From contig JAWWOW010000005.1 of NCBI GenBank assembly GCA_033851265.1, positions 302,972 through 366,971 of the forward strand: a stretch of DNA of 64,000 nucleotides, in the 5' to 3' direction. The position numbers and the translations under genes were made by a program. The notes under the pieces are model-generated. The model was not told the DNA's origin. It saw nothing but the letters and a program-made list of their open reading frames with translations, and made no database searches. The DNA is from Frankiales bacterium. Lineage in GTDB: Bacteria; Actinomycetota; Actinomycetes; JAWWOW01. Positions within the stretch are counted from its first letter, which is position 1. Each line of letters starts with the position of its first letter. Shown in pieces: positions 5,090 to 44,749 of the stretch.

Positions 5090-7039
5090 ATGGAGATCTT
5101 TCTCGTCTACACCATCCTGGGGATTGTCACGGGCTGCGTGTATGCGATCACGGCGACTGGCCTGGTGGTCACCTACACCACGACCGGCATCTTCAACTTC
5201 GGCCATGGCGCGATCAGCATGTTCGCTGCTTATACGTACTGGCAGCTGACCCAAGCCTGGAACATCCCGCAGCCAATCGCCCTGATCCTGGTGCTGTTCA
5301 TCCTTGCTCCCGCGTTCGGCGTCGTCATCGAACGCGTGCTCATGCGACCGATGTACGGCGCACCTGTCGACCTGACCCTGGTCGTGACCCTTGGGCTGCT
5401 GCTGACATTGCTCGGTTTGGCTTTTTGGGCCTGGGACCCGCAGGTCACGCGGCTACCTGTTGACTTCTTCAACCGCCGCGAGTTTCACGTCGGCTTTCTT
5501 GCGGTGTCCTACACGAAGGTCGTCACGGTCATCGTGGCCATCGCGATCGCGATCGGCCTGAAGGTGTTCTTCTCGCGCACGCGCACAGGTATCGCGATGC
5601 GTGCGGTCGTTGACAACCCGGACCTGGTGGCGATGGCCGGCGGTCGCCCGTACCGGATCCAGCAACTGTCCTGGGCTCTCGGATGTTCGCTGGCGGCAAT
5701 CGCCGGCATTCTCATCGCCCCGCTCACTCAAAACGTGCTGGACATCAACACCCTCACCCTGAACGTCATCAACGGATACGCCGCAGCAATGATCGGCCGG
5801 CTGCGAAACCTGCCCGCAACCGTTGCTGGTGCCATCGGAATTGGGTTGCTAACGCAGTACACAGTCGAGTTTGCGCCCTCAGGACAGTTCTGGAACAAGG
5901 CGTACCAGATCATTCCGATGGTCGTGTTGTTCATCGCACTGATTCTGTTGCCGCAAGACCGACTCCGCTCCGGATCGCTCGCCGCACCAGTTGCCCCGAA
6001 GCCGGCGGGACTGCGCTCGTCCGTGGTGTGGGCCGTCATCCTCGTCGTCGCGACAATCGTGATCTCCGGCCACTTGTCGCTGTCAAACCTGCAATCCGGC
6101 AGCCAAGGCTTTGCTCTGGCTTTTGTACTGCTCTCGTTAGTCGTGCTCACCGGGTATAGCGGCTTGCCGTCTCTCTGCGCGATGACGTTCGTGGGTCTAG
6201 GTGCCTACGCCGTCGGTCACTACACCGCACATGGATCACTCCTGGGCGGACTGCTCGGAGTCTTGCTCGCGATGGCCGTGGGCGTCCTGGTGGCGTTGCC
6301 GACATTGCGGCTCCGTGGGCTCTATCTTGCGCTCGCCACACTCGCCTTCGGTCAGGCGATGTACACCGTGTTCTTCGTCGGGTATCTCAGCAAGGGAACT
6401 GGCACCGGCGTCGGCTTGGACATCGAACGACCGAGTGTGTTCGGAATCTCGACCAGTTCCAACCGCGCATTCCTCATCTTCACTGCGGCCGTCTTCGCAA
6501 TTGCGTCGATCGGCGTCCTCGCCTTGCGGCGGGGTCCGTACGGCCGCCGCATGGCCGCGTTGAATGACTCGCCCGCTGCGTGCGCGACGCTAGGCGTCAA
6601 CATCAACTGGACGAAGCTGTCAATCTTCGCGCTCTCAGCCGGTCTAGCCGGCTTTGGCGGGTTGTTGTTCGGCGGTGTCACACAACTTGTCACGGACACT
6701 GACTTCTATCTATTCCAGAGCCTCATCATCTTGCTACTTGTGCGCATCGGTGGCATCAATACCGTGAGCGGGGCGTTTCTCGGTGCGATGTTCTTTGCTG
6801 CGTTCCCGATCATTCAGACGCATGTCGCCGGGGTCGCAAACCTGCAGTACATCCTGACCGGCGTGGGTGCCATCGCGTTGGCGCGCGACCCCAACGGACT
6901 GGGTCGACGGGTTGCAGAACTCTGCGAATGGGCGCGCAACCTCGTGTCGCGAGAGCGGTCGAAGCCAAAACCGGTGTCGAGCGACAGAGTTCTCGACTAT
7001 CTGCCGGAGGAGGAGAGCCTTGCCACCGCCGGCCACTGA
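5090..7039 (+). CDS. Fused branched-chain amino acid-type ABC permease (LivH-like plus LivM-like domains)
   Basis: 649 aa with two successive polytopic permease modules and the characteristic motifs (GLVVTYTTTGIFNFGHGA...; GYSGLPSLCAMTFVGLGAY). Follows the second SBP with a 15-nt gap. Confidence 0.9.
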   Translation: MEIFLVYTILGIVTGCVYAITATGLVVTYTTTGIFNFGHGAISMFAAYTYWQLTQAWNIPQPIALILVLFILAPAFGVVIERVLMRPMYGAPVDLTLVVTLGLLLTLLGLAFWAWDPQVTRLPVDFFNRREFHVGFLAVSYTKVVTVIVAIAIAIGLKVFFSRTRTGIAMRAVVDNPDLVAMAGGRPYRIQQLSWALGCSLAAIAGILIAPLTQNVLDINTLTLNVINGYAAAMIGRLRNLPATVAGAIGIGLLTQYTVEFAPSGQFWNKAYQIIPMVVLFIALILLPQDRLRSGSLAAPVAPKPAGLRSSVVWAVILVVATIVISGHLSLSNLQSGSQGFALAFVLLSLVVLTGYSGLPSLCAMTFVGLGAYAVGHYTAHGSLLGGLLGVLLAMAVGVLVALPTLRLRGLYLALATLAFGQAMYTVFFVGYLSKGTGTGVGLDIERPSVFGISTSSNRAFLIFTAAVFAIASIGVLALRRGPYGRRMAALNDSPAACATLGVNINWTKLSIFALSAGLAGFGGLLFGGVTQLVTDTDFYLFQSLIILLLVRIGGINTVSGAFLGAMFFAAFPIIQTHVAGVANLQYILTGVGAIALARDPNGLGRRVAELCEWARNLVSRERSKPKPVSSDRVLDYLPEEESLATAGH

Positions 7040-39837: not shown

Positions 39838-40482
39838 TCAACTCAGGCCGGCGCGGGCCTGCCCCTCTGTGTTGGCGGTGTCACGTCGGCGACGTGAGCG
39901 CACGATCCAGATGGCGATCAGCGCGATGGCGACCACGAGGACGGCTGCACTAACCGCGCTGAGTTGTCGCTCCAACGAGTGGTAGCCGGCGCCGGCCAAA
40001 TATCCGAGCGTCGCCACGACCGCGGCCCACATTGATCCGCCAGCGATGTTCGCCACCGTGAATCGCCCGGCGGGTATGCCGCTCATCCCTGCGATGCCGG
40101 GGACTAGCGCCCGCAATGCAGCCGCCCATCGACCGAGGACAACAGCGATGGCGCCGCGACGTCGTACCAGAGCCAGCGCCCGCTCGACTTCTCCCGATCC
40201 CTTGATGCGTTGAGGTAGGCGCGCGAGCAGGGTGCGGCCGTAGCGTCGGCCTACTCGGTAACCGATCTGGTCGCCGACCACGGCGCCGGCAATGGCCGCG
40301 GCGATGACCGCCCACAGCGGGAGCGCACCTCCGTTTGCGACGACGCCGCCGACGATGACGGCGATCTCGCCGGGAATCACCAGCCCGATGAACACAGAGG
40401 CTTCCAGGGCGGGAAGGAGAAAAACGACGCTCAGTACGAGCCACGGTGGGAGCCCGACCAAGGAGTTGATGACCGACGTCAT
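39838..40482 (-). CDS. DedA/VTT-domain family membrane protein
   Basis: LVLSVVFLLPALEASVFIGLVIPGEIAVIVGGV... core with the conserved G-x3-G/E...R-x-G-R motif (IGYRVGRRYGR). Confidence 0.85.
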   Translation of the reverse strand: MTSVINSLVGLPPWLVLSVVFLLPALEASVFIGLVIPGEIAVIVGGVVANGGALPLWAVIAAAIAGAVVGDQIGYRVGRRYGRTLLARLPQRIKGSGEVERALALVRRRGAIAVVLGRWAAALRALVPGIAGMSGIPAGRFTVANIAGGSMWAAVVATLGYLAGAGYHSLERQLSAVSAAVLVVAIALIAIWIVRSRRRRDTANTEGQARAGLS

Positions 40483-40583
40483 TCTCGAACAATGACCGAG
40501 GACTCCTGACAAATTCCTGAACGATGCTGCCGGGAGGGCGACAGCTCAGCCCTCCCGGCAGTGGTTCGTTACACCGGCGCGAG

Positions 40584-40877
40584 TTACTCGACGCCGTTGT
40601 ACTGGTGATCGACATTGCCCGCAGGATCAGCGTGGCCGCCCGGACCGTCCGGGGAACCGGTCTCCGTGCCGGTCTCCGGGTTTTCGGTGCCTGGCGCTTC
40701 CGCGTCCTGCTGGGGGGATGCCGGGGTGCTCGTTGTCGGGGTCTGCGTAGCAGTCGAGACCACCGGCTTGGCGGTGGAGCTGGACGGACTGGACGCCGCC
40801 ATGGCGACACCAGTGCCCAATCCCGTGGCGAGGACCAGCCCGGCCAAGATGGCTACTGGTCTACGTGTCTTCGTCAT
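40584..40877 (-). CDS. Small secreted protein, paralog A, with C-terminal DGPGGHxDPAGNVDHQ motif
   Basis: ATG with GGAGG 9 nt upstream. Signal peptide MTKTRRPVAILAGLVLATGLGTGVAMA. Ser/Thr/Pro-rich middle. Conserved tail PETGTETGSPDGPGGHADPAGNVDHQYNGVE. Confidence 0.6.
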   Translation of the reverse strand: MTKTRRPVAILAGLVLATGLGTGVAMAASSPSSSTAKPVVSTATQTPTTSTPASPQQDAEAPGTENPETGTETGSPDGPGGHADPAGNVDHQYNGVE

Positions 40878-41047
40878 GACAACCAACCTCCTGTTTCAGG
40901 TTCGGTGGCGTTTCCACCGGTGCAACAAGGTGCATCCCGCCCGCTGACGCACGCATGACGCGAGGTGACGCGTTGGTGAAGGCATGTCCAGCAACTCTTA
41001 GGGTTCCGTTCAGCAAATCGTCAGGATTGGAGTGATGAACTCCATTC

Positions 41048-42103
41048 GTGGACCTGACCACTGCTCCTGCGGTGCACGGGACGGGCATCGATCGTCGCCG
41101 GGCGATGAGCTTGGGTGCAGCCCTCGCGACAGTCAGCGCGCTCTGGCTCTACTTCTCCGACACCGATCGGCTCGTCGCACTGAGTGGGGCAGCCGACCAG
41201 CTCGGTGCATCCATCGCGCAAGTGCCATGGGTTGTCGTTGCGGCTAGCGCATTGGCGCTGGCGCTTGCCACCATCCACTACGTCCTTGCTGCGGTCGCGA
41301 TTCGTGCGTCCAGTGGAGCGCCGCTCCCGCTCGGTGAGGCGACGTTGAGCCAGCTTGCATCCTCGGTCCTGAATCGGGTCGCGCCCGGCGGCGTCGGGGG
41401 AATGGTGGTCAACACGCGTTATCTCTCGCGTCATGGCTTGCCGATGGGCGGGGCGCTCACGGCTGTCGGAGCGCTCGGCGTTCTCGGGGGAGTCGCAGAT
41501 CTGCTCGGGACTGGACTGCTGCTTTTCGGCGGCCACTGGATCGGTCTCGGCGGCGGCACGCGCGAACTACATGTGCTCGCGGGCGCTGGGATGCATTGGG
41601 CGCCAACCAAACACCTGGTCACCATGGGCGTAGCGGCAGCGGTGCTCGCCGGTTTGGCCACCGCGGCGTACGTCGTGATCCGGAGGCATCGACGCGCACG
41701 CGGTAAGGACACCGAAGTCGGCGCCCACGCATGGCGGCACATCGCTGCCCTGGCGCGGCGGCCGCGTCGTGCGTCGACGTTGCTGCTCGCGTCCGCCGGG
41801 ACAACCTTTGTGCTCGCGTTCGCCTTCGCGATCGTCGTACAAGCCCTCGTCGGCACCGCCGCGCCGTCGCTTGCCGCACTCATGGTCGTCTACCTCGTCG
41901 GAGCAGCTGCTGCTTCGGCGGTACACATCCCAGCAATCGCGGGACCAACAGAAATCGCATTGACCGCGGCGCTCGTCGCCAGTGGTGTTGCGGCCGGCCC
42001 GGCCCTTGTGTCGGTGCTGTTGTTCCGCGGGCTCACCTTCTGGGCACCGGTCCCCGTCGGGCTTTTCGCGGTGCGAGCGCTGCGCCGCCGTGGTGCGCTA
42101 TGA
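41048..42103 (+). CDS. Polytopic membrane protein (possibly UPF0104/flippase-like family)
   Basis: 351 aa, about 8 hydrophobic segments, Gly/Ala-rich helices, basic loops (RRHRRARGK). Family assignment tentative. Confidence 0.65.
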   Translation: MDLTTAPAVHGTGIDRRRAMSLGAALATVSALWLYFSDTDRLVALSGAADQLGASIAQVPWVVVAASALALALATIHYVLAAVAIRASSGAPLPLGEATLSQLASSVLNRVAPGGVGGMVVNTRYLSRHGLPMGGALTAVGALGVLGGVADLLGTGLLLFGGHWIGLGGGTRELHVLAGAGMHWAPTKHLVTMGVAAAVLAGLATAAYVVIRRHRRARGKDTEVGAHAWRHIAALARRPRRASTLLLASAGTTFVLAFAFAIVVQALVGTAAPSLAALMVVYLVGAAAASAVHIPAIAGPTEIALTAALVASGVAAGPALVSVLLFRGLTFWAPVPVGLFAVRALRRRGAL

Positions 42104-42169
42104 GAAAAGCCAGCTACCGGGAGGCAGGGGGCGCACTCCCGGTAGCTGGTCTTGTTGGGCCGAGAAGAG

Positions 42170-42550
42170 TTACTCGGTGCCCTCGAACTGGTGGTCTACG
42201 TTGCCCGCGGGGTCTTCGTGCCCGCCGGGACCGTCCGAGGGGCTCTCCGTCTCGGTACCGGTCTCAGGTGCCTCGGTCCCGGGCGCCTCTGCAGCTTCCG
42301 ACCCCGTGTCCGGGGTCGTCTGGTCACCTTCCTGAACATTGTCCGCGTCCGTCGGTGCGGCCGGCTTGGCCTTCGCCGGGGCGGCGGGAGCGGCAACCGC
42401 GGCTGGCGCTTTGGTCACCACCGTGGACACAACTGCAGGCTTAGTCGGCGCATTCGAGCCCGTTGCCGCGAACGCGACGCCGGTGCCCAGGCCTCCGGCA
42501 GCCAGCGCTAGTCCAGCTGCGATCGCAAGCGGTCGGTGGATCTTTGGCAT
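42170..42550 (-). CDS. Small secreted protein, paralog B, with C-terminal DGPGGHxDPAGNVDHQ motif
   Basis: Start at MPKIHRPLAIAAGLALAAGGLGTGVAFA. Tail PETGTETESPSDGPGGHEDPAGNVDHQFEGTE is nearly identical to paralog A. Confidence 0.6.
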   Translation of the reverse strand: MPKIHRPLAIAAGLALAAGGLGTGVAFAATGSNAPTKPAVVSTVVTKAPAAVAAPAAPAKAKPAAPTDADNVQEGDQTTPDTGSEAAEAPGTEAPETGTETESPSDGPGGHEDPAGNVDHQFEGTE

Positions 42551-42717
42551 GGTGCAAGCCTTCCCGTTCGTCCGGTGGCGGTTCCACCGGCTTGGGCACA
42601 CGCTGCACGGGCGGGCCTGACGGGACGGTGAACGTTCCTGACAACGCTGGCTGCGCGGCGCCGTTCAGAATCTGTTCAGATTGGCTTAGCCACTATGGCC
42701 CGGCTGGAAGGGGAACC

Positions 42718-43398
42718 GTGCCGAGAGTGCTAGTGGTTGAGGACGAGGCGGGTATCGCCACGGCGGTACGCCGCGGCCTGATCGCCGAGGGCTTCACCGT
42801 GGACATCGCCGACAACGGCGTCGACGGCTTATGGCGAGTAACCGAGAACGAGTACGACGCCGTCGTACTCGACATCATGTTGCCGCAGCTGTCTGGCTAC
42901 GAAGTCTTGCGCCAGATGCGCGCCGCCAACGTCTGGGCCCCGGTGCTCATGCTGACCGCGAAGGACGGGGAGTACGACGTCGCCGACGCACTCGATCTAG
43001 GCGCTGATGACTACCTGACCAAGCCGTTCTCCTTCGTCGTACTCATGGCGCGGCTGCGGGCGATGATGCGCCGAGTTCAGCGCGAGCGCCCCGCGGTACT
43101 GATGGCCGGTGATCTCGAGTTGGACCCAGCTCGTCGGCAGTGCGTTCGCGGCACGGTCGAGATCAAACTGACCGCGCGGGAGTTCGCCGTCCTCGAATAC
43201 CTGATGCGCTACCACGACGAAGTTGTGTCGAGGAGCGAGATCCTCGCGCACGTGTGGGACGAGAACTTCGAGGGTGACCCGAACATCGTTGATGTGTACG
43301 TCGGACGTCTCCGGCGCAAGGTAGATACACCGTTCAAGCGGCAGGCCATCGAAACCGTGCGTGGTGTGGGCTACCGGCTGCACGGCACCGGTGGCTGA
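42718..43398 (+). CDS. OmpR-family response regulator
   Basis: GTG start (residue-counted from the track ORF). Receiver LVVEDE...D...LMLTAKD. Winged-helix C-terminus (RGVGYRL). Confidence 0.9.
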   Translation: MPRVLVVEDEAGIATAVRRGLIAEGFTVDIADNGVDGLWRVTENEYDAVVLDIMLPQLSGYEVLRQMRAANVWAPVLMLTAKDGEYDVADALDLGADDYLTKPFSFVVLMARLRAMMRRVQRERPAVLMAGDLELDPARRQCVRGTVEIKLTAREFAVLEYLMRYHDEVVSRSEILAHVWDENFEGDPNIVDVYVGRLRRKVDTPFKRQAIETVRGVGYRLHGTGG

Positions 43399-43402
43399 CT
43401 TG

Positions 43403-44749
43403 ATGAGCGGTTGGTGGCGGCGGCGCTCGCTGCGCGCCCGCCTCACCGTTGCAGCGACCGCGGCTATCACCGTGGTGATCGCTGCCGCGGCAGCATTGCT
43501 GCTGTGGCGGGTGCACGCGTCTCTCGTCTCTCAACTCGACGCGACGATCACGCGAGAGGCGCTCAGCGTCGGTGCGGTCGTCCGCAACGCTGACCAACCA
43601 GTCGTGCCCGGCAAACTCGCTGGGGACATCGTCGTGCAGGTCGTCGACAACAACGGTCGCGTTGTTGCCAGCTCAGAGAACATCAACGGCGAGAGCCGAC
43701 TGTTCAGTTTCCGGGCACCCACGCCGCTTGCCAACGTGAGCATCCGCACGATGCCTAACGTCCCGGTGGGGGAGCAGGGTGAATATCGAGTGGCGGCCAC
43801 CGCGGTCGGCGGGGCCATTCCGTACACGGTGTACGTGGGCCGACCACTGGAGCCGACGAACCGGAGCGTGACCGAGTTCACGGTCGGGCTCGCGGTCGGC
43901 GTACCCGTGCTCGCCGCCGTCCTCGGCGGCATCACGTGGCTGCTCGTGGGGCTTGCCTTGCGACCGGTCGAAGTGCTCCGCAGGCAGGCGGCAGAAATAA
44001 CGGTCACAGATTTGCACCGCCGGGTCGACGTGCCACCGGCTCGGGACGAGTTGGCACGGCTGGCTGCCACTCTCAATGAGTTGCTCGATCGGTTGGACAG
44101 ATCACTGACCCAACAACAGCAATTCATCGCCGACGCAGCCCATGAGTTACGCAGTCCTATTACGTCGTTGCTTGCACAGCTTGAGGTAGCCGAACGCGGC
44201 GGCGGGGGCGCGACACCGGCCGAGCTCGCCCCTGAGGTCTGGCGGTTGTCCAAGCTCACCGATGACCTGCTGACGCTCGCGAGCCTCGACGCGGCTCCGT
44301 CAGGGCATCGGGACGAGGTGGACCTCGATGACCTCGTCTTCGCAGAGGTACAACGGCCGCGGCAGCGCACCGACGTGACCGTCGATGTCAGCGGTGTTTC
44401 CGCAGCTAGCGTTCATGGCGACGTAACGATGCTGACCCGCGTCGTACGCAACCTTCTGGATAACGCGATTCGTCACGCCCGCAGCCGAGTCGTCGTACAA
44501 CTGACTAGTGGGGGGAGCGATGCGACTCTGGTCGTCGCTGACGACGGTCCCGGCATTCCGGAGGAGAAGCGCGTTGAGGTGTTCGAGCGGTTCTCCCGGC
44601 TCGACGATGCCCGTGACCGCGATGCTGGTGGACGGGGGCTCGGTCTCGCCATCGTTCGTGATGTTGTGAACGCGCATGATGGTGTGGTGACCATCGAGGA
44701 CAATGACCCAGGCGCACGCTTTGTGGTGCGACTGCCGGCTGATCAATAG
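43403..44749 (+). CDS. Sensor histidine kinase (2 TM, HAMP, HisKA, HATPase_c)
   Basis: ATG 5 nt after the RR stop. H-box AAHELRSPIT. N box LLDNAIRHA. G boxes. Confidence 0.9.
   Translation: MSGWWRRRSLRARLTVAATAAITVVIAAAAALLLWRVHASLVSQLDATITREALSVGAVVRNADQPVVPGKLAGDIVVQVVDNNGRVVASSENINGESRLFSFRAPTPLANVSIRTMPNVPVGEQGEYRVAATAVGGAIPYTVYVGRPLEPTNRSVTEFTVGLAVGVPVLAAVLGGITWLLVGLALRPVEVLRRQAAEITVTDLHRRVDVPPARDELARLAATLNELLDRLDRSLTQQQQFIADAAHELRSPITSLLAQLEVAERGGGGATPAELAPEVWRLSKLTDDLLTLASLDAAPSGHRDEVDLDDLVFAEVQRPRQRTDVTVDVSGVSAASVHGDVTMLTRVVRNLLDNAIRHARSRVVVQLTSGGSDATLVVADDGPGIPEEKRVEVFERFSRLDDARDRDAGGRGLGLAIVRDVVNAHDGVVTIEDNDPGARFVVRLPADQ

Follow-up and report, generated by a model that had tools for sequence, protein, structure and literature searches.

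Two genes for small secreted proteins lie next to a two-component system in the genome of a Frankiales bacterium. The window, which is the whole stretch of DNA that was analysed, covers 64,000 nucleotides (nt) of contig JAWWOW010000005.1 (assembly GCA_033851265.1, positions 302,972 to 366,971). The small genes are geneA (40584..40877) and geneB (42170..42550), both on the reverse strand, and they encode proteins of 97 and 126 amino acids (aa). Between them on the forward strand is a gene for a 351-aa MprF-flippase-like membrane protein (41048..42103, starting with GTG at 41048), which Pfam and NCBIfam place in PF03706 (LPG_synthase_TM). On the other side of geneB are two forward-strand genes, one for an OmpR-family response regulator with the Pfam domains Response_reg and Trans_reg_C (42718..43398) and one for a HAMP/HisKA/HATPase sensor kinase with a periplasmic PDC-like domain (43403..44749; Pfam, NCBIfam, and a structural model). 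Downstream of geneA is a reverse-strand gene for a 214-aa membrane protein of the DedA/VTT family (39838..40482, ATG at 40482; Pfam and NCBIfam). An earlier note on this DNA had described geneA and geneB as secreted paralogues with a near-identical C-terminus that bracket the 351-aa membrane protein, with geneB divergent from the regulator/kinase pair. Both open reading frames (ORFs) and the gene order are as it described, and the alignment and codon pattern confirm that the two genes are paralogues. Comparison with other genomes indicates that the two proteins belong to a family whose genes appear to be kept, across genomes, as partners of a single clade of OmpR-type regulator/HAMP kinase pairs.

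The sequences of the two small proteins suggest that selection has preserved their C-terminus. Both proteins open with a Sec-type signal peptide, which has a Lys/Arg-containing n-region, a hydrophobic core, and an AxA motif (VAMA/AS in geneA and VAFA/AT in geneB), and this is followed by a linker rich in Ser, Thr, Pro, and Ala. Alignment shows that the C-terminal 40 or so residues are almost the same. Of the last 41 codons, 15 are identical, 17 differ synonymously, and 9 differ non-synonymously, and the excess of synonymous changes indicates that conservation acts on the protein. The mature proteins have an isoelectric point (pI) of about 4.1 and contain two His residues and no Cys, Met, or Trp. 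The geneB product has both a mid-protein motif (DADNVQEGDQTTPD, encoded at 42308..42349 on the reverse strand) and a tail motif (SDGPGGHEDPAGNVDHQFEGTE, 42173..42238, reverse strand), while that of geneA has the tail motif without the mid-protein one (PDGPGGHADPAGNVDHQYNGVE, 40587..40652, reverse strand). In each gene a stop codon lies immediately 3' of the tail, and a Shine-Dalgarno sequence is present at the right spacing from the start. A public JGI gene call gives geneA only 72 aa (L081 11749-11967). The 97-aa model with its signal peptide is backed by a near-identical Logan contig (L082) and by the family alignment.

The family is large and is without annotation or described counterpart in Pfam, NCBIfam, the PDB, and the literature. 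A profile built from geneA and geneB matched 446 proteins in the protein database, all of them unnamed or "hypothetical". A hidden Markov model (HMM) search of 1.84 billion cluster representatives (50% identity) returned 940 at E<=1e-3 and 424 at E<=1e-10. The 150 family representatives listed in the HMM search are all 94-194 aa long, and fusion to another domain, sought among them as a hint of function, was not found. There were no matches to the two paralogues in Pfam or NCBIfam, to 40 members in Pfam, or to the family in a profile search of the PDB, and the motif strings gave irrelevant matches only in the searchable literature. These results bear out the opinion of the earlier note that there was no obvious described counterpart. 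When a single genome was scanned for each species, 154 relatives were found. The locus counts given here rest on the 80 loci kept from these, with gene models for 79. The 80 loci are mostly from Actinomycetota, including Frankiales, Mycobacteriales, Amycolatopsis, Kribbella, Actinocrinis, Phycicoccus, Acidimicrobiia, Thermoleophilia, and Gaiellales, and Chloroflexota are well represented. A few are from Ammonifex, Thermodesulfovibrionia, Isosphaeraceae, and metagenome-assembled genomes (MAGs) labelled Gammaproteobacteria.

The family members share a common plan that ends in a nearly fixed tail. In the alignments and the 79 gene models, a signal peptide up to AxA is followed by a variable low-complexity linker, repeats, and the C-terminal tail. 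The signal peptide is present in all 79. The mid-protein repeat, DTDNVQxGDQTTPD, occurs in zero to three copies, with one in geneB and none in geneA. The tail, DGPGGHxDPxG(x)NVDHQFxGxE, is at the extreme C-terminus and is followed at once by the stop codon, and every one of the 79 models ends in GxE-stop. An alignment of 40 sequences shows the residues P, G, G, H, D, G, D, H, G, and E of the tail to be invariant. The tail motif noticed in geneA and geneB thus recurs in hundreds of relatives with the same extreme C-terminus. Its ligand-type residues are two invariant His and invariant Asp/Glu, with no Met or Cys. The median pI of the family is about 4, and Cys is found in one member of 79. An AlphaFold2 model of the geneB protein, made from an alignment of 99 sequences, has a mean predicted local distance difference test score (pLDDT) of 58 and a predicted template modelling score (pTM) of 0.13, and the only structure predicted is the signal-peptide helix. 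Family members are predicted to be disordered beyond the signal peptide.

The mid-protein and tail motifs may have a common origin. In three loci of Intrasporangiaceae (L048, L053, and L066, Phycicoccus / Lapillicoccus), an internal second copy, GPGGHADxxGVDVQQGDQ, fuses a GPGGHAD unit into VDVQQGDQ. Because this internal sequence joins the two family motifs, it suggests that they are diverged copies of one repeat unit. The family member of Streptomyces glebosus has 116 aa and includes both ...PDRDNIQQGDQTASD... and SDGPGGHSDPSSTADHQFTGKE, and its gene is divergent from a regulator-kinase pair. The family proper was not found on plasmids with tblastn. The regulator of the window has relatives with 60-67% identity on actinobacterial plasmids and megaplasmids, and two of the plasmids have small secreted proteins beside regulators that are 60-66% identical to it. 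In Mycobacterium sp. JS623 (plasmid pMYCSM01, L084 6624-6881) the protein has 85 aa and the mid-protein motif alone, DTDNLQDGDQNGPE, and in Arthrobacter sp. FB24 (plasmid 1, L085 3733-4071) the mid-protein motif is degenerate, PNVEQTGEHTDPGD. Plasmid relatives with only the mid-protein motif suggest a superfamily that is wider than the C-terminal motif.

The small genes are closely linked to the two-component system across the family. The proteins of the window were searched against the 80 loci with tblastn, and neighbouring genes were also clustered. Of 79 loci, 69 have a regulator or kinase gene no more than 1 kb from the small gene, in any of four orientations, as expected from the tie to the neighbouring system that had been proposed for the window, and several of the other ten are contig ends or pseudogenes. 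The gene arrangement varies. The regulator is upstream and divergent in 30 loci, including that of geneB. The orders regulator-kinase-small gene and small gene-regulator-kinase are each found in 12 loci, the small gene is convergent with kinase-regulator in 11, and kinase-regulator-small gene occurs in 4. Linkage that has been kept through this much rearrangement suggests a shared function, not inherited gene order. Compared with the regulator of the window, the adjacent ones have 43-74% identity (median 55%). The small gene and the two-component system are found together in cultured Streptomyces glebosus, Amycolatopsis, Kribbella, and Actinocrinis. Kinase homologues with 50-55% identity are common in Streptomyces and have generic names only.

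Other neighbours of the small genes are conserved in few lineages. In the neighbour clustering, the kinase and the regulator are the only conserved partners. The 351-aa membrane protein, which had been counted as part of the module, has no tblastn homologue in the 80 related loci. It is ruled out as a conserved partner and is a putative member of the local regulon only. In 6 of the 80 loci, a DedA gene is found about 6 kb or less from the small gene. The only other recurrent neighbours form a lipoprotein-ABC-FtsX cluster in a minority of loci. Enzymes that modify ribosomally synthesised and post-translationally modified peptides were not found in the neighbourhoods, and the small proteins carry a Sec-type signal peptide where precursors of such peptides would have a leader peptide, so they do not fit that class. 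A second OmpR-type two-component system directly adjoins the module in S. glebosus (L206 1333-3477) and on a 320-kb metagenome contig (L083 8495-10167). On the latter, the kinase of the second system is short and ABC/FtsX genes follow the system.

The promoters of the family have a common layout, and the shared regulatory element is likely to be a set of TCA direct repeats with an 11-bp period and a -10-like hexamer at a fixed offset, rather than the palindrome found upstream of geneA and geneB. In 47 of 80 loci, the sense strand upstream of the small gene contains TCA-N8-TCA, compared to 2.8% of control windows. These repeats cluster at -60 to -90, and there are often three of them. Of 68 cognate regulator genes, 41 have the same sense-strand box in their upstream region, at -34 to -60. 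Of 46 anchored family promoters, 43 have a hexamer of the form NAnnnT, mostly CAnnnT, at 14 or 15 nt past the T of their last TCA repeat, and any other offset between 8 and 22 is found in at most 2 of the 46. In S. glebosus the intergenic region repeats the whole layout of box and -10 for both divergent genes. In the established geometry of PhoB/OmpR-type activators, the activator box replaces the -35 element. The spacing seen here fits such an activator, so transcription starts can be predicted. The starts given below are predictions from box and -10 geometry only, with the offset rule applied by hand in the window.

In the window, TCA repeats with a -10-like hexamer precede five genes or operons, namely geneA, geneB, the MprF-flippase-like gene, DedA, and the regulator operon. 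Upstream of geneA are four repeats (TTCAC, GTCAC, GTCAT, and GTCAG, with spacings of 11, 10, and 11 nt; 40944..40980, reverse strand), which are putative response-regulator boxes. The predicted -10 hexamer is CACCTT (40927..40932), 15 nt past the T of the last TCA, and the predicted start is at about 40920. Upstream of geneB are three putative boxes (GTCAG, TTCAC, and GTCAG, with spacings of 10 and 11 nt; 42617..42642, reverse strand), a -10 hexamer predicted by the same family rule (CAGCGT, 42600..42605), and a predicted start at about 42593. The regulator gene is preceded by TTCAG-N6-TTCAG (42664..42679, forward strand), with a predicted -10, CACTAT, at the family offset (42691-42696) and a predicted leader of 15 nt, and its autoregulation through this box is putative. 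The boxes of the other two genes are each 23 nt before the start codon and have the form TTCAG-N6-GTCAG. For the membrane-protein gene the box is at 41009..41024 (forward strand) and the -10 is TGAACT, and for DedA they are at 40506..40521 (reverse strand) and 40489-40494 (CATTGT). Because the offset places the predicted start on the start codon itself (GTG and ATG, respectively), the LPG_synthase_TM and DedA transcripts look like leaderless, regulator-dependent ones, and DedA is a putative regulon member.

The boxes stand out in the window by their position. A loose box pattern has 10 matches in the window and about 9.7 are expected by chance, and six of the ten fall inside 2.2 kb, each upstream of a gene. 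A generic sigma-70 scan found no promoter, and the two hits of the terminator scan were away from the palindromes. The local genes look co-regulated, as the earlier note had supposed in calling them an envelope module, and the TCA repeats take the place of the palindrome as the likely means. The boxes are assigned to the adjacent regulator by co-occurrence, and this assignment is putative. TCA boxes are also found at FtsX-type ABC transporter genes in other loci. One lipoprotein, about 210 aa long and unmatched in Pfam, has TCA-N8-TCA upstream of its gene (L034 8357-9082, L038 8217-8981, L052, L061, and L064), is often followed by ABC ATPase and FtsX permease genes, and is probably a further regulon member in those lineages. 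In Kribbella alba (L025), two 11-bp direct repeats, CACAGGTGTGC, are found at 5550-5600 instead of TCA boxes, and a DedA gene sits between the regulator and the small gene.

Two further hairpins, both read from the sequence, may end the transcripts of the small-gene region. One with 13-bp arms is directly 3' of geneA (40527..40561, reverse strand), and it is likely a terminator that makes geneA monocistronic. The other has 14-bp arms and lies between the convergent membrane-protein gene and geneB (42110..42149), and it is likely a bidirectional terminator. The terminator scan caught part of it. Both hairpins are perfect, and neither has a strong U-tract.

The palindrome is probably part of the transcript of the small genes. 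As reported, the same palindrome is upstream of both. Palindrome A, CCGGTGGAAACGCCACCGAAC (40900..40920, reverse strand), has 6-bp arms, is 22 nt before the geneA ATG, and begins at the predicted first base of the mRNA (+1). Palindrome B, CCGGTGGAACCGCCACCGGAC (42570..42590, reverse strand), has 7-bp arms, is 19 nt before the geneB ATG, and begins about 3 nt past the predicted start (approximately +4). No other part of the two upstream regions is as well conserved as the palindrome. Its 18-mer has exactly two occurrences in the 64 kb, and allowing up to 3 mismatches brought no further near-match there. The promoters of the regulator, DedA, and membrane-protein genes do not have the palindrome, and it is replaced outside the closest relatives, so the idea that it is the shared regulatory element does not hold. 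Among relatives, a Blastococcus MAG (L002) has nearly the same palindrome even though the flanking sequence has diverged, but other lineages have unrelated hairpins or nothing at that position. The arms are TCGGGC...GCCCGA and similar in Chloroflexota and CCGGGGACA...TGTCCC in Streptomyces.

Stable hairpins are found mainly at the beginning of long leaders. With a stable hairpin defined by a minimum free energy of -8 kcal/mol or lower, one opens 18 of the 22 predicted leaders that are 37 nt or longer, compared to 1 of 24 shorter leaders, the starts again being those predicted from promoter geometry. Strongly folding 26-nt windows make up 30-37% at the predicted start, 0-2% further downstream, and 0-28% upstream, where they become more frequent toward the start. 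Over all 80 loci the leaders are only mildly more structured than controls (mean z of -0.70 compared to -0.05), and the z-scores of individual leaders are modest, from -1.3 to -2.7. A universal leader structure was dropped as an explanation, since the excess is mild and equal on the two strands, and the hairpin is limited to certain lineages. There may also be a second, weak helix that reaches the Shine-Dalgarno sequence. There was no Rfam match at E<=1 over 40400-42800, and the terminator scan found no U-tract or intrinsic attenuator at the palindromes. The preferred reading is that the palindrome forms a 5'-terminal mRNA stem-loop, a stabiliser or translation tuner that is optional between lineages. 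Stabilising stem-loops of the ompA or aprE type lie only a few nt from the 5' end and keep their structure as the sequence changes, and the predicted long leaders, with their hairpins of differing sequence, may be of this kind. This is more likely than an operator of the regulator, because unrelated hairpins hold the same position in other lineages.

The kinase has a sensor domain of CusS-like fold, as judged from its model, but the domain lacks conserved metal ligands. The AlphaFold2 model of the periplasmic domain is PDC-like and has a pLDDT of 87 and a pTM of 0.84. Its best match in a Foldseek search of the PDB is 5KU5, the silver-bound sensor domain of CusS (E 5.9e-4, template modelling (TM) score 0.64). 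The extracellular domain of WalK has a similar or higher TM score of 0.65-0.72, and PhoQ and CitA are close behind CusS. In the periplasmic region of 48 cognate kinases, which is poorly conserved overall, no column reaches 25% for His, Cys, or Met. Within the parts of the module outside the cytoplasm, metal-type ligands form an invariant cluster only in the tail of the small protein, which has two His, two Asp, and the terminal Glu with its free carboxylate. Among curated families, the best-scoring ones are heavy-metal families for both partners. The regulator has 236.5 bits to TIGR01387 (cztR_silR_copR, cut-off 279.2) and the kinase has 218.3 bits to TIGR01386 (cztS_silS_copS, cut-off 292.55).

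The circuit resembles known ones, while the protein does not. ZraP-ZraSR and CpxP-CpxAR of E. coli are systems in which a small periplasmic protein is encoded divergently from a two-component system, is induced by it, and feeds back on it, and ZraP binds metal. Similarly, the small exported gene is divergent from the regulator-kinase operon in the 30 loci mentioned above, and putative regulator boxes are common to both promoters (47 of 80 for the small gene and 41 of 68 for the regulator). However, the family has no sequence or fold relation to ZraP, CpxP, or Spy and no LTXXQ/CpxP Pfam match, it is predicted to be disordered instead of forming the helical hairpin of CpxP and ZraP, and the regulator is of the OmpR type, unlike ZraR, which is of the sigma-54 type. 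SilE and PcoE are small disordered periplasmic metal "sponges" that are encoded beside SilRS and PcoRS and controlled by them. The family is like them in being small, secreted, and predicted to be disordered, in having conserved His-containing motifs, and in being next to a two-component system that is nearest to the heavy-metal subfamily among curated families. Unlike SilE and PcoE, which have many His/Met motifs, it has two His, no Met, a highly acidic composition, and a conserved element pinned to the C-terminus. It is not homologous to them, as judged from the Pfam and NCBIfam searches, and it is not accompanied by efflux pump or oxidase genes. The kinase is like CusS in its best structural match, but it differs from CusS and CopRS in lacking conserved His, Met, and Cys in the sensor domain, and both regulator and kinase score under the NCBIfam cut-offs.

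Actinobacterial systems with cited evidence provide further parallels. The CopR box of C. glutamicum has been defined experimentally as an 11-bp-period direct repeat with CTTCA that serves two divergent promoters (PMC3140484), and the TCA repeats described here have the same period and are also placed before divergent genes. An unannotated 9-kDa ORF is divergent from copR in C. glutamicum (PMC3140484). A cop region of the C. glutamicum type was recovered from a metagenome contig through the CopR box, and the corresponding ORF (L087 2218-2424, between copR and a cg3286 homologue) was rejected as a family member because it has no signal peptide or similarity. A search of the literature for small secreted partners of actinobacterial two-component systems found only non-homologous precedents. 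In HbpS-SenS-SenR of Streptomyces and MSMEG_0243/0244/0246 of M. smegmatis, a secreted accessory protein beside the two-component system has been proposed to bind an extracellular ligand and modulate the kinase (PMC4991794, PMC7516205). The family shares with these the position of a secreted protein beside an actinobacterial two-component system. The HbpS and MSMEG proteins are folded haem-binding proteins limited to one system each, while the family is disordered by prediction, has short linear motifs, and is found in at least two phyla.

A mechanism that would account for these observations can be proposed. GeneA and geneB belong, as a duplicated pair, to an undescribed family of small proteins that have a Sec signal peptide for export, an acidic linker predicted to be unfolded, and a free C-terminal Glu. 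The small gene is most probably a direct transcriptional target of the adjacent pair, and in this genome it was duplicated together with its promoter region. The phosphorylated regulator would bind two to four TCA repeats spaced by 11 bp, which would stand in for a -35 element 15 nt before a CAnnnT -10, and such boxes would serve both the small gene and the regulator's own operon. The same boxes before DedA and the MprF-flippase-like gene would give an envelope regulon of five promoters. Outside the cell, the two invariant His residues, the flanking Asp/Glu, and the terminal carboxylate would bind a cation, most likely a transition metal. The small protein would then buffer the cation, present it to the partner kinase, or dampen that kinase, as a third component in the style of ZraP, CpxP, or SilE, and the CusS-like sensor of the kinase would have lost the conserved metal ligands of its own. 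The palindrome would be a stem-loop at the extreme 5' end of the mRNA, a lineage-specific addition that probably stabilises the message or tunes ribosome access. Cation binding by the tail, with buffering or feedback on the kinase, is plausible because the tail holds the only invariant metal-type ligands while the sensor domain has no conserved ones. Gly-Gly-His, internal or N-terminal, is a classic Cu(II)/Ni(II)-binding sequence, which is relevant here only if processing exposes it. Taken as a whole, with the family as partner and target of the pair, the TCA repeats, the cation-binding tail, and the 5' stem-loop all included, this explanation has about an even chance of being correct.

Several observations weigh against parts of this explanation. 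TCA/GTTCA repeats with an 11-bp period are the generic box of actinobacterial PhoB/OmpR regulators, such as the Streptomyces PHO box, and another regulator of this family could therefore be the binder. Regulator and kinase both fall under the curated cut-offs, so that membership in the heavy-metal families fails. In the neighbour clustering of the 80 loci, no metal efflux pump, oxidase, or chaperone was conserved near the module. The tail motif has just two His and no Cys or Met, and it could equally be a protein-docking motif. Also, the local regulon of DedA and the MprF-flippase-like gene, with FtsX elsewhere, looks more like a response to envelope or cationic-peptide stress. As for the palindrome, the sense and antisense folding energies of the leaders are equal over the 80 loci, the hairpin is absent from about half of the family, and an exact palindrome kept in geneA, geneB, and the Blastococcus MAG also fits a sequence-specific DNA-binding protein.

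The main rival explanation is that the small protein works without metal. It would be an accessory or feedback ligand whose tail docks on the PDC-like sensor domain, in the manner of CpxP on CpxA or YycH/I on WalK, or a polyanionic decoy for cationic antimicrobials. The tight synteny with the kinase is consistent with this, as are the constant position of the motif at the extreme C-terminus, the invariant Phe, Gln, and Gly beside the charged residues, the resemblance of the sensor fold to WalK, and the lack of metal genes conserved nearby. The genes with boxes point in the same direction, since DedA, MprF-type, and FtsX-type genes are classes usually linked to cationic-peptide and envelope stress. 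On the other hand, the sensor domain is poorly conserved while the tail is near-invariant across phyla, which is unexpected for a co-evolving protein-protein interface, and the invariant tail residues His, Asp, and Glu are classic metal ligands. A role without metal is a serious possibility but clearly the less probable one. More speculative still is a stronger form of the cation-binding explanation. In this form, the small protein is an obligatory extracellular co-sensor whose GGH...DH...E tail supplies the ligand-binding, probably metal-binding, residues that the kinase lacks. The result would be a three-component "split" sensor that is widespread in Actinomycetota and Chloroflexota and here controls genes for remodelling of membrane lipids and carrier lipids (DedA and the MprF-like flippase). 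We regard this form as doubtful.

Two alternatives to a stem-loop treat the palindrome as an operator. The better of them is that a different dimeric repressor binds the palindrome and blocks RNA polymerase at the start of the small genes. The palindrome overlaps the predicted +1, its exact sequence is kept in three promoters, and its two strands fold equally well, all of which such a repressor would explain. It is nevertheless unlikely. No candidate repressor is conserved nearby, and the hairpin that related lineages have at this position is built from quite different arms, which fits selection for structure over a single recognition sequence. The second alternative, that the adjacent response regulator co-regulates both small genes through the palindrome, is very improbable. 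The palindrome is identical in the two paralogues and almost identical in the Blastococcus MAG despite the diverged flanks, but the regulator, DedA, and membrane-protein genes, whose promoters share the TCA repeats, lack it, and other lineages have unrelated hairpins or none. It is also downstream of the conserved -10 hexamer, inside the predicted transcribed region, and OmpR-family dimers characteristically bind direct repeats, as C. glutamicum CopR does on TGAAGATTTnnTGAAGATTT (PMC3140484).

Two further explanations of the small proteins have little in their favor. They might be precursors of a C-terminal signalling peptide that is secreted and then sensed by the adjacent kinase, as in quorum sensing. 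Small Sec-exported precursors beside a receptor kinase with an autoregulated circuit, a conserved part that is C-terminal, and a "PGGH" junction that could be a processing site would all suit this idea. Known pheromones diversify for specificity, however, and the putative mature peptide is almost the same from Frankiales to Chloroflexota and Ammonifex, with the C-terminal 22 residues near-invariant across phyla. A pheromone role is very improbable for this reason, and no processing protease or exporter is conserved nearby. That the small ORFs are chance ORFs whose likeness reflects a non-coding repeat, as might be supposed from the many spurious ORFs of GC-rich DNA and the shortened geneA of one gene call, is practically inconceivable and already refuted by comparative data, given the excess of synonymous changes, the correctly spaced Shine-Dalgarno sequences, and the hundreds of homologues with a common signal peptide, invariant motif, and stop-codon position.

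The family may have uses in the study of signalling in soil bacteria. What is new is the protein family, while a circuit of a two-component system and a small exported target or accessory protein is of a known kind. Two-component systems with extracytoplasmic accessory proteins are known, but to our knowledge few families of such proteins have been described, and almost all are folded and limited to one system each. Here roughly a thousand unannotated sequence clusters appear to be consistently paired with a single kinase/regulator clade, and to be targets of it, in phyla that are abundant in soil. The carrier clade includes tractable genera such as Streptomyces and Amycolatopsis. With the promoter grammar of 11-bp TCA repeats, 15 nt, and CAnnnT, the regulon of any genome that carries the family can be predicted, and the hairpin would illustrate a 5'-terminal mRNA structure that some lineages have gained and others lack. 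If the tail binds a cation or the kinase, it would be a new short linear motif for extracellular sensing and would help to explain what an orphan kinase clade detects. The small gene may be an unrecognised third part of the signalling system.

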